DNA of 57,627 nucleotides from Candidatus Micrarchaeota archaeon. Lineage in GTDB: Archaea; Micrarchaeota; Micrarchaeia; Micrarchaeales; CABMGC01. The notes below the pieces were generated by a model. That model made no database searches and was not told the origin of the DNA. It was given only the letters and a program-made list of their open reading frames with translations. A program made the translations under genes and the position numbers. Location of the stretch: contig JAKAWC010000004.1 in assembly GCA_021817125.1 (NCBI GenBank), positions 1-57,627 of the forward strand, written 5' to 3'. Below are positions 6,191 through 54,092 of this stretch, piece by piece (position 1 is the first letter of the stretch; each line of letters starts with the position of its first letter).

Positions 6191-6346
6191 ATGCCTGACG
6201 TAACCACATTGTGCAACGTGTGCGGCATGCCTGCGTCATCCAGGTGTAGGCTGTGCGGGAAGATGGTCTGCGAGATGCACTACGATGCCAGGAGCGGACT
6301 CTGCACCTCGTGCAAGGGCAGGGGCAGAAGCGTCTCGGCCAAGTAG
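6191..6346 (+). CDS. 51-aa zinc-finger microprotein (not in ORF track)
   Basis: MPDVTTLCNVCGMPASSRCRLCGKMVCEMHYDARSGLCTSCKGRGRSVSAK; AGGTGAT-ATT-ATG RBS overlapping the priL stop. Confidence 0.85.
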   Translation: MPDVTTLCNVCGMPASSRCRLCGKMVCEMHYDARSGLCTSCKGRGRSVSAK

Positions 6347-21954: not shown

Positions 21955-22501
21955 TCTTCTCCTGCAGTTTCATCAGCGCACCGAACAGGTTCTCTGGCCG
22001 AGGAGGGCATCCCGCCACGAATATGTCAACGGGAAGCACCTGGTCTATGCCCTTGATGATGTTATAGCTCTCGAACCAAGGCCCTCCGCATGTCGCACAC
22101 TCACCGTAGGCAATCACATACTTCGGGCTCGGCATCTGCTCGTACATCCTCTTTATCTCCGGGATTACCGCCTTGGTGACCCATCCGGCTACAATCATGA
22201 CGTCGCACTGCCTCGGCGTGCCCCGAAACAGCAGGTAACCCTTTCGCTCCGCATCGACGCGAGATGTGCCAAAGTCCATGAGTTCCATAGCACAGCAGGC
22301 GAGGCCGAACTGGAGGGGCCACAGCGAGTTCATCCGGGACCAGTTTATCAGCCCTTCCGACATCGCCTTTGTGACATCGGATAATTTTGTGAAAAAGACG
22401 TTCTGCTTCTGCTCCCGTGACTTCAGAGACTCCTCTACGAGCTTGTCCATCTCCTTCTTGGCATTGAGGAACCTCTCGCTAGAGTAATACTCTTCATCCA
22501 T
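21932..22501 (-). CDS. nuoB: Complex I subunit B
   Basis: FGLACCAMEL, PRQCD, GECATCGG, GCPPRPE. Confidence 0.96.
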   Translation of the reverse strand: MDEEYYSSERFLNAKKEMDKLVEESLKSREQKQNVFFTKLSDVTKAMSEGLINWSRMNSLWPLQFGLACCAMELMDFGTSRVDAERKGYLLFRGTPRQCDVMIVAGWVTKAVIPEIKRMYEQMPSPKYVIAYGECATCGGPWFESYNIIKGIDQVLPVDIFVAGCPPRPENLFGALMKLQEKIGGKVED

Positions 22502-23045: not shown

Positions 23046-23504
23046 ATGTACAGCAACAATAGGAATATCGTTGTCAGGGAGATAATGAGTTCCCCAGTTG
23101 TAACAGGATCTCTGAAAGAGGGCGTAAAGGACATAGCCAAGAAGATGAAGCAGCATGATGTCGACTCGATCGTCATCGTCAACCAGGCCAACGAGCCAGT
23201 TGGGATAATAACCGAGGGCGACATGGTGAGAAGGCTTCTGGCCAGGACGCGAAACCTCCTCTTCTTCAAGGCGAAGGACATCATAAGCAAGCCGGTCCTT
23301 TCGGTGAGAGGAGATATGTCTATGGACGACGCGGCGCAGACCATGATGTCGAAGCGGGTGAAGAAACTGTGCGTGGTCGACGAGCAAGGCAAGCTCATCG
23401 GCTTGGTAACGCAGTTCGACATCATCAAGAACTCCACGGCTTTGATAGGCGTGTTGCGCGAGATGGTACAGGCCGGCTACGCAGAGGAAACGGAAACGGC
23501 CTGA
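23046..23504 (+). CDS. Tandem CBS-domain protein
   Basis: VREIMSSPVVT, GIITEGD, KDIISKPV, GLVTQFDI. Confidence 0.9.
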   Translation: MYSNNRNIVVREIMSSPVVTGSLKEGVKDIAKKMKQHDVDSIVIVNQANEPVGIITEGDMVRRLLARTRNLLFFKAKDIISKPVLSVRGDMSMDDAAQTMMSKRVKKLCVVDEQGKLIGLVTQFDIIKNSTALIGVLREMVQAGYAEETETA

Positions 23505-23519
23505 TGGCAGATGGTGTCT

Positions 23520-23825
23520 CTAAGACATCTCTATGCTCTCTTCGGAGTAGCCGAGCTGCAGGAGAGCCTTCCTTACTGCATCCTTGTGGTCACCCTGAAG
23601 CTCGATCGTGCCGTTCTTGTGGGTCCCACCGCACGCTAGGATATGCTTAAGCTCCTTTGCAGTCTTGTCGAGTTCCTCGCCAGTAAAGCCCTCGATCACA
23701 GTCATATATTTCCGGAACTTCTTTTTCTCGGTATAGACTTTGATGCGCCTATTGGTCTCTTTATCTAGTACGTCGCATACGCAGATTTCCTTGGGTAATC
23801 CGCACTTTACGCACATTTCAGCCAT
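23520..23825 (-). CDS. aif1: Translation initiation factor aIF1 (SUI1)
   Basis: CVKCGLPKEICVC, KELKHILACGGT, IELQGDH. Confidence 0.96.
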   Translation of the reverse strand: MAEMCVKCGLPKEICVCDVLDKETNRRIKVYTEKKKFRKYMTVIEGFTGEELDKTAKELKHILACGGTHKNGTIELQGDHKDAVRKALLQLGYSEESIEMS

Positions 23826-24022
23826 TAGTTTTGCGCACCTCGCTCTTTGAGCAAAGTTAGAATTTGTGCGATGGTCCTCCTGATCTCCCGCGACTTTACC
23901 TTCTTGCTGGCGACCCCGGTAGAGGCGATCTTCCTCTTCTCTATGTTGAGGTCGAGCCTAAGTTCACCTAGCTTCGCGCCAAGCGCGTCGGTGGACAGTG
24001 CTCTTAAGTCGTTTACTCTTAT
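23825..24022 (-). CDS. rpl29: 50S ribosomal protein uL29, apparent non-canonical ATA start (not in ORF track)
   Basis: (I/M)RVNDLRALSTDALGAKLGELRLDLNIEKRKIASTGVASKKVKSREIRRTIAQILTLLKERGAQN; syntenic between uS3 and aIF1. Confidence 0.92.
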   Translation of the reverse strand: MRVNDLRALSTDALGAKLGELRLDLNIEKRKIASTGVASKKVKSREIRRTIAQILTLLKERGAQN

Positions 24023-24055
24023 GGAATCACCTATTGTATATGATATTTCTCCTAT

Positions 24056-24781
24056 TTAAGCTTTATTTACACTCGGTGTCGGTGCTGGTGCTGGTGTCGG
24101 TGCTGGTGTCGGTGCTGGTGCTGCCTCACGTGGTGCATCCCTGTCCCTCGGTGGGAACGGCTTTGCCTCCATCGCCTTCGGAAGAGCTATCTTTTTCATC
24201 TCCATGTCGGGGAACTTGGTTCCTGGCTGGACTATCCGTACGAGTATCCCGATCGCGCCATACTTTGGGTAAGCTGTGACGTGAGCCTCGTCCACTAACC
24301 TTGTGACCGCGCCAGCCTTCGGTATGTAGCCGAACCTGACCTTTATCGACTTGGCCCGTGCGCCTTTCGCGGCGAGCTTGCCTGCGGCGATTATTTCAGC
24401 GCCGAGGGCGCCGTTCTGCATTATGTCTCTGAGCGTCATGTGGAGGAGCGACCTTGCGTTCGACCCTCTCTCAAGCGAGTTGGCTATGTATCTACCGACA
24501 AGCCTTGGCTCAAGCTTCGGATTCCTTACCTCGGCCACGCTTATCTGTGGGTTGTCGATCTTGTATGTCTTCTTTATCGTGTCGGTGAGCGTGTCGATGG
24601 TGGAGCCTCCCCTTCCGATGACTCTTCCCGGGTTGGTCACGTAGACGGTGATCCTGGTGATCATTGGGGTCTTCTGGATGTCGACCCTTGAGAAGCCAGC
24701 CTTTGAGAGCTGCTTCTCGAGGTACTTGGTTATGCCAGCCTTTATGAGCGCATCGTCTATAAATTTTCTCTCAACTACCAT
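24056..24781 (-). CDS. rps3: 30S ribosomal protein uS3
   Basis: KH domain PGRVIGRGG, GAEIIAAGKL, GAIGILVRI; PAPT-repeat tail. Confidence 0.97.
   Translation of the reverse strand: MVVERKFIDDALIKAGITKYLEKQLSKAGFSRVDIQKTPMITRITVYVTNPGRVIGRGGSTIDTLTDTIKKTYKIDNPQISVAEVRNPKLEPRLVGRYIANSLERGSNARSLLHMTLRDIMQNGALGAEIIAAGKLAAKGARAKSIKVRFGYIPKAGAVTRLVDEAHVTAYPKYGAIGILVRIVQPGTKFPDMEMKKIALPKAMEAKPFPPRDRDAPREAAPAPTPAPTPAPAPTPSVNKA
24073..24123. repeat. Coding tandem repeat (6/12-nt units GGTGCT/GGTGTC) encoding PAPTPAPTPAPAPTP in the uS3 tail
   Basis: cggtgtcggtgctggtgctggtgtcggtgctggtgtcggtgctggtgct seen directly. Confidence 0.85.
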
Positions 24782-53849: not shown

Positions 53850-53878
53850 CTCTTTCAGGTTAATCTTTTGTGTTCTGT

Positions 53879-53953
53879 AGCGGGGTAGAGTAGCCTGGAG
53901 TGCTCGTCGGGCTCATAACCCGAAGATCGTTGGTTCAAATCCAGCCCCCGCTA
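53879..53953 (+). tRNA. Initiator tRNA-Met (CAT)
   Basis: A1-U72 pair, GGG/CCC in the anticodon stem, loop CTCATAA. Confidence 0.96.
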
Positions 53954-54092
53954 TCCCGTTTATGACTGCCACCACCCCACAATTCCACAAATCGGTCATC
54001 TTTATATTATATTAGCAATTAATAGATCATCAAAACAAAGTAATGATGGGGTCTTTGTTTGTATTTTTTAATGGAAGTGTGGGGTTAGGGAA

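Follow-up and report, generated by a model that had tools for sequence, protein, structure and literature searches.

In our analysis of the contig JAKAWC010000004.1 of a Candidatus Micrarchaeota archaeon (GenBank assembly GCA_021817125.1), of which the whole analysed stretch of 57,627 nucleotides is called the window here, the gene of the ribosomal protein uL29 (rpl29) was predicted to start at an AUA codon, directly upstream of the gene of aIF1, the initiation factor that polices start codons. The reading that we favour, at a probability of roughly 65%, is that this AUA is a recently derived start which is placed by its Shine-Dalgarno (SD) sequence in a lineage tolerant of near-cognate start codons, with an incidental feedback through aIF1 being possible. 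Comparisons across relatives argue that such feedback would not be a conserved, selected circuit.

The genes on the minus strand are ordered rpl2, rps19, rpl22, rps3, a 76-codon open frame (uL29), and a 101-codon ORF (aIF1). The uL29 frame (24055..23828) opens at the in-frame TAA of rps3 (24058-24056) and reads, from stop to stop, IGEISYTIGDSIRVNDLRAL...AQN; the first ATG, GTG, or TTG in it is a TTG at 23854-23852, nine codons short of the stop. As the match to the Pfam domain Ribosomal_L29 (PF00831; 35.2 bits, cut-off 24.5) spans profile positions 1-57 of 57, the start must lie at or upstream of about 24013. The earlier note on this DNA had claimed that uL29 lacks any canonical codon ahead of its conserved body, which both the reading of the frame and the extent of the Pfam domain confirm. 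The proposed near-cognate start is the ATA at 24020..24022, from which the coding sequence (23825..24022) has 65 codons and a TAA; the domain begins 3 codons past this ATA and covers residues 4-61 counted from it. An SD sequence, AGGTGAT (24026..24032), precedes the ATA, with the GGTG core (24031-24028) 5 nt before it and TCC (24025-24023) as the spacer, and the ATA aligns with the ATG of the same-genus genome G001 and of most relatives within the family.

The likeness of this spacing to that of the ATG genes at 6191, 7831, 41620, 44422, and 54578, also noticed earlier, holds for all five genes, which are among the eight sites of the GTGATNNNATG pattern in the window, where 1.93 are expected and none of 100 shuffles reached eight. 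We then estimated the SD spacing in the genome of the window (G000, an 893-kb metagenome bin of 85% completeness), in which 895 genes were called with a codon-usage model and the 885 not starting at a contig edge were analysed. For 70 genes, a GGTG precedes the first canonical start by exactly 5 nt (50 ATG, 11 GTG, and 9 TTG), with 7 nt as the second commonest spacing (16 genes) and 6 nt found in 6 genes. Since 5 nt is the genome-wide mode, the ATA at 24022 stands at the optimal SD spacing of this genome, and AUA 24022 is supported as the sole credible start of uL29. No 16S rRNA, and hence no anti-SD sequence, was found in the 85%-complete bin. Rfam gave no match between positions 22500 and 25500 of the window, and the uL29 start region folds no better than shuffled sequence (z = 0.59).

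An assembly error at the ATA is unlikely. The earlier note had called for reads at 24020-24022; the Logan contigs of four sequencing runs, which are contigs rather than raw reads, give ATA. The contigs of runs X1 (depth 57) and X2 (depth 16) have 0 differences over 23500-24300, one of run X3 has 0 differences over 23824-24218, and one of run X4 has 1 difference, at an unspecified position, over 23914-24088. A Pfam search found uL29 in a single copy in G000, and its protein is 91% identical to that of G001, with a dN/dS of 0.06 (at a dS of 1.1) which is indicative of purifying selection. In G001, the aligned codon is ATG, with a TAA directly before it and GGTG 8 nt upstream, whereas G000 has ATA with GGTG 5 nt upstream.

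We performed a comparative analysis of uL29 starts in 129 loci of the class, namely 38 of the family of G000 (f1), 1 of f2, 45 of f3, and 45 of families f4-f21. A uL29 start that is near-cognate only was found in 2 of 38 f1 loci, 6 of 45 f3 loci, and none of the 46 loci of the other families, which amounts to 8 of 83 in the order. The two f1 cases are the ATA of G000 and, in G060, an ACG directly after a TAA, the congener of the latter (G002) having ATG; GGTG lies at 5 nt in both. The six f3 cases, one of which is the unpublished G038, comprise three ATC and three ATA codons, their GGTG being spaced by 5 nt in five loci and by 7 nt in the sixth (G039). In f2 and f4-f21, an ATG precedes the aligned position by two or three codons (M-A-I-I...), the misaligned G070 being uninterpretable. 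Canonical uL29 starts with aIF1 downstream are thus carried by 36 of 38 f1, 39 of 45 f3, and 45 of 46 other-family loci (the remaining one is G070). In the comparison of rpl29 starts that the earlier note had proposed, near-cognate starts recur within the order, and the ATA of G000 is species-specific, being ATG in G001.

An interpretation of f3 as starting uL29 uniformly at AUA, AUU, or AUC (AUH; 15/15) was rejected, as the GTG of what had been taken for the SD is itself in frame, three codons upstream of the AUH, in 39 of 45 loci (GTG-xxx-xxx-ATA). In these 39 loci the GTG is more likely to be the start than the AUH, because a 6-nt spacing is rare in the f3 genome G032 (5 starts, versus 39 at GGTG + 5 nt, as counted over 400 kb, or 42% of the genome) and because the resulting GTG-L-I-I-K start parallels the M-A-I-I-K N-terminus of families f4-f21.

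Near-cognate codons at the preferred SD spacing are found in other genes as well. In G000, we considered codons that follow a GGTG by 5 nt and precede the first canonical start of a called gene by 8 codons or more. Near-cognate codons make up 13 of these 31, against 11 of 89 at spacings of 2, 8, and 11 nt, which were chosen as same-frame controls (Fisher p = 0.0011). The 13 codons consist of 1 ATA, 2 ATC, 5 ACG, 3 CTG, 1 AAG, and 1 AGG; the AGG is false since it lies inside uL29, and the AAG is doubtful. The signal emerged only with the spacing set at 5 nt and with a minimum distance of 8 codons from the canonical start, and a crude test of all pre-start codons gave no AUH excess (9/610 vs 104/8979). 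Similarly, in the 400 kb of G032, three of the four equivalent codons are ATA, versus 39 canonical starts at that spacing. As unrelated genes share near-cognate starts behind GGTG, the uL29 AUA would be one case of a lineage-wide tolerance.

About 10 other G000 genes have ATC, ACG, or CTG at this position, including RNase HII, Top6A, LplA, and aIF2-beta. The near-cognate codons of these four genes and of an ATP-grasp protein align with ATG or TTG in relatives, and in RNase HII, LplA, aIF2-beta, and the ATP-grasp protein the Pfam domain begins ahead of the first canonical codon. The deepest-conserved near-cognate start that we saw is that of RNase HII (contig C11:25915-26616, minus strand; ATC, with the domain from residue 4): its ATA, ATT, or ATC starts span two families (loci L042-L071), of 29 loci, 17 offer no canonical option and 12 have a GTG, TTG, or ATG in frame, and a stop codon stands immediately before the AUH in 3 loci. 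The ATC of Top6A (C1:462-1562, minus strand), located after AAGGTGATCAG, is common to G001, with canonical starts in the other 28 loci. LplA (C8:6827-7570, minus strand) has an ACG and a domain that starts 5 residues ahead of the first Met; G001 has ACG too, after GGTGAT-GGG, and G005 has ATG at the same codon. The ATP-grasp protein (C2:16806-17417, minus strand) has an ACG and a domain from residue 2, and 5 of 5 relatives have an ATG at that codon or one codon ahead of it. The domain of aIF2-beta (C8:134197-134604, plus strand; CTG) starts 14 residues ahead of the first canonical codon, and the CTG is limited to genus g1, the other loci having mostly TTG or ATG. The CTG starts of the GT2 and Lip_prot_lig_C genes are ambiguous, with canonical codons within 9 residues, and a Rpp30-like ORF on C2 (ATA after GGTGATTGC) and two other ORFs have no Pfam match.

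The overlap of the uL29 stop with the aIF1 start, also pointed out before, is present in the sequence: in the TAATG at 23823..23827 of the minus strand, the stop codon TAA (23827-23825) shares its last A, a single nucleotide, with the aIF1 ATG (23825-23823). The aIF1 gene (SUI1, PF01253; 23520..23825, minus strand; 101 codons; 64.2 bits vs a cut-off of 25.5) is the final gene of the cluster, and its product aligns full length to the Methanocaldococcus jannaschii aIF1 4mo0 (E 4.9e-30, residues 1-100), the N-terminal Cys knuckle included. Of the 129 loci, 127 have a SUI1 gene downstream of uL29 on the same strand, the two exceptions being the short G099 locus, in which none was found, and G147, with a misplaced match. 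The TAATG offset occurs in 35 of 38 f1 and 19 of 45 f3 loci, and the remaining f1 and f3 junctions range from -14 to +5 nt except for one misplaced match; for 42 of the 45 f3 loci, the offset of the aIF1 start, counted from the T that opens the uL29 stop codon, is between -1 and +5 nt. On this comparison, the uL29-aIF1 junction is ancestral and nearly universal, whereas the weak uL29 start is rare and recent.

A second Shine-Dalgarno-like GGTG (23836..23839, minus strand) lies within the Gly-Ala codons of uL29, 10 nt before the aIF1 ATG. Of the loci having the R/K-G motif, 36 of 37 in f1 and all 44 in f3 have GGT followed by G as the Gly codon, and no other Gly codon is used less often in G000 than GGT (2420 of 19492). 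The spacing of the element to the aIF1 start is 10-12 nt in 53 of the 81 loci with a match of at least 5 nt, while among 86 overlapping gene pairs of G000, 13 have a GGTG at 5 nt and just 1 has it at 10 nt. Such conservation at a synonymous site is indicative of an RNA-level function, which could be that of a reinitiation tether or of an independent, suboptimally spaced entry site. Given a conserved GGTG 10 nt upstream of its ATG, aIF1 output need not strictly follow uL29 initiation.

The mechanism that we propose begins with the translation of uL29 from AUA 24022, where 7 nt of SD pairing at a 5-nt spacing would set the codon in the P site and the ordinary CAU initiator tRNA would presumably read it with a third-position mismatch. 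The AUA would be recently derived from ATG within the genus, with the SD spacer contracting from 8 nt to 5 nt alongside, in a genome and an order that would tolerate AUA/AUU/AUC, ACG, and CUG starts behind GGTG-N5. Ribosomes terminating on uL29 would probably reinitiate on aIF1 via the ancestral 1-nt overlap, aided by the GGTG 10 nt upstream, and higher aIF1 would lower AUA initiation. Since near-cognate codons are disfavoured by aIF1, a degree of negative feedback, both on uL29 and on the coupled aIF1, may arise automatically.

With respect to the initiator tRNA, ARAGORN predicted 36 tRNAs in G000, among which one tRNA-CAU (window 53878-53956, plus strand) has A1:U72 and three anticodon-stem G-C pairs, features that we take to be initiator marks. 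Neither an elongator tRNA-Met nor a CAU-type tRNA-Ile2 was found by ARAGORN in the 85%-complete bin. A tRNA-Ile with the anticodon UAU is located at C12:2040-2115 (minus strand).

Several points weigh against an incidental, tolerance-based AUA start. Further in-frame ATA codons are present upstream at 24055, 24046, and 24034. The near-cognate-only uL29 starts require about 7 independent origins in 83 genomes, versus about 1% of genes per genome in crude scans, and uL29 could thus be favoured for near-cognate starts, as a feedback-loop model predicts. aIF2-beta, a second initiation factor, also has a near-cognate start in G000. It would also be odd for a ribosomal protein needed in stoichiometric amounts to have a weak start, unless initiation stringency is truly relaxed. 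Finally, the four sequencing runs belong to one mine-drainage study, and X1 and X2 are possibly the source of the window itself.

The earlier note had proposed a fidelity-sensing loop similar to those of infC and eIF1 but placed one cistron upstream, in which the AUA of uL29 acts as the sensor: low aIF1 would permit more uL29 initiation, and reinitiation would restore aIF1. The lack of a canonical uL29 start and the coupling geometry, on which this idea was built, stand, and the loop is mechanistically possible. A -1 nt stop/start overlap is reported to give termination-reinitiation coupling, a tight one in Haloferax volcanii, as well as in Escherichia coli (PMC10666635), and the aIF1 of Sulfolobus solfataricus is described as permitting 30S complexes on AUG, not AUU, mRNA (PMC4705826, PMC6237735). 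Moreover, near-cognate-only uL29 starts have arisen repeatedly, with GGTG at 5 nt in 7 of the 8 cases, and aIF2-beta carries its CTG. However, the weak codon is species-specific and rare, the loci of G001 and of most f1, f3, and other-family genomes having canonical starts with the same aIF1 downstream; it lies on uL29 rather than on the factor's own cistron, aIF1 starting at the ATG at 23825; near-cognate starts are widespread in unrelated genes; and independent entry on aIF1 is possible via the conserved GGTG. We therefore regard a selected sensor as unlikely. In the titles and abstracts that our literature searches covered, no such loop in archaea was found. A broader version of regulation, which we likewise consider improbable, would have the whole order at a relaxed start-codon stringency, with real near-cognate GGTG-N5 starts on essential genes; in this species, aIF1 (via uL29) and aIF2-beta (via its CUG) would form a homeostat that keeps stringency sufficiently low for genes with other near-cognate starts to be expressed.

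The remaining alternatives concern the position and the reality of the ATA. Translation of uL29 might begin at the upstream ATA 24034, 24046, or 24055, or arise through reinitiation at or readthrough past the in-frame rps3 TAA, as the frame is open from that stop and offers four ATA codons in all. GGTG stands at the preferred spacing only for ATA 24022, however, relatives start at the aligned codon (immediately after a TAA in G001), and no sign of stop-codon reassignment was seen. Furthermore, the 33-nt gap past the rps3 stop exceeds the approximately 20 nt at which coupling is reported to be nearly abolished in H. volcanii (PMC10666635), and we hold this alternative to be quite improbable. 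Least probable, and by our estimate very improbable indeed, is an error of sequencing or assembly at the ATA, or the decay of uL29 into a pseudogene. One G-to-A change is enough to turn ATG into ATA, and the genome is an incomplete metagenome bin. Nevertheless, contigs from four runs concur (two of them full-length), the SD spacer differs from that of G001 as well, so that more than one letter has changed, the sole uL29 copy has a dN/dS of 0.06, and near-cognate starts occur in other genes and genomes.

Compared with known systems, the SD-placed AUA start of uL29 resembles infC of E. coli (IF3, AUU) and of Staphylococcus aureus (AUA), in which an AUH start is tied to a factor that polices start codons and the weakness of the codon is offset by a strong SD (PMC4705826, PMC13009471). 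As described for infC, the factor's own cistron carries the weak codon, which is conserved and whose mutation from AUU to AUG abolishes control, whereas here the codon belongs to the ribosomal-protein cistron upstream, is species-specific, and is a predicted start; aIF1 and IF3 are, besides, unrelated proteins. The eukaryotic eIF1 is the orthologue of aIF1, and a high level of the factor is reported to disfavour suboptimal starts (PMC6237735, PMC4705826). Yet eIF1 acts on its own AUG context during scanning, while aIF1 here has a normal ATG and archaeal starts are set by the SD or a leaderless 5' end. The cvfC1, ccpN, and citZ genes of S. aureus likewise have a conserved AUA or AUU at the right distance from a strong SD and were missed by gene finders, and AUA or AUU behind an extended SD gave about 10-30% of AUG output in reporters (PMC13009471). 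S. aureus is a bacterium for which four sites per genome are reported (PMC13009471), whereas the present case is an archaeon with eukaryote-type initiation machinery and about 11 sites among about 80 GGTG+5 genes, with ACG and CUG included.

The surroundings of the two genes also differ among archaea. The order uS3, uL29, aIF1 on one strand is also that of M. jannaschii, and in other archaea the ribosomal cluster continues after aIF1 with rnp1-rps17-rpl14, which is not so here. Relative to this archaeal rpl29-SUI1 neighbourhood, the order of G000 has a tighter junction, with an overlap of 1 nt, and a cluster of which aIF1 is the last gene, and the f3 pair is detached from rps3. In G000, a CBS-domain gene at 23046-23504 on the plus strand is convergent with aIF1, so that the cluster ends there. 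uS3 is upstream of rpl29-aIF1 in 35 of 38 f1 loci and in 0 of 45 f3 loci (L018-L039, L143, L160-L188), and in several f3 genomes the pair lies a few kb from top6A. The rps3 gene of the window (uS3; 24056..24781, minus strand; Ribosomal_S3_C 58.8 bits, KH_2 56.3 bits), whose TAA (24058-24056) is in frame with uL29, encodes a low-complexity Pro/Ala/Thr C-terminal tail (PAPTPAPTPAPAPTP; 24060-24130, minus strand) made of short repeats, and this repeat tail draws many unrelated contigs when contigs of sequencing runs are mapped. The octamer CTTAAATA (24053..24060, minus strand), which resembles the archaeal TATA box, lies over the rps3 stop at a distance of 31-38 nt from the downstream ATA and may serve rpl29-aIF1 as an internal promoter. 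By a regular expression of our own making, 16 of 38 f1 loci have a similar A/T octamer that precedes the uL29 start by 26-48 nt.

These observations emphasize cautions to be exercised in the annotation of such genomes. Gene finders that allow only ATG, GTG, and TTG miss or truncate uL29, RNase HII, Top6A, LplA, aIF2-beta, and others in these genomes; uL29 is a completeness marker, and bins in which it is missed may consequently score as less complete than they really are. The feedback from uL29 to aIF1 is a cheap and testable hypothesis, but the comparative data speak against a conserved design. Reviews, in the parts drawn on here, give only AUG, GUG, and UUG as archaeal start codons (PMC7531240, PMC4705826). 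In this lineage, approximately one in eight strong-SD genes is near-cognate-started, and the AUH starts of RNase HII extend across two families, which suggests that SD anchoring can override the discrimination by aIF1 or that the stringency of initiation is relaxed in these reduced symbionts.

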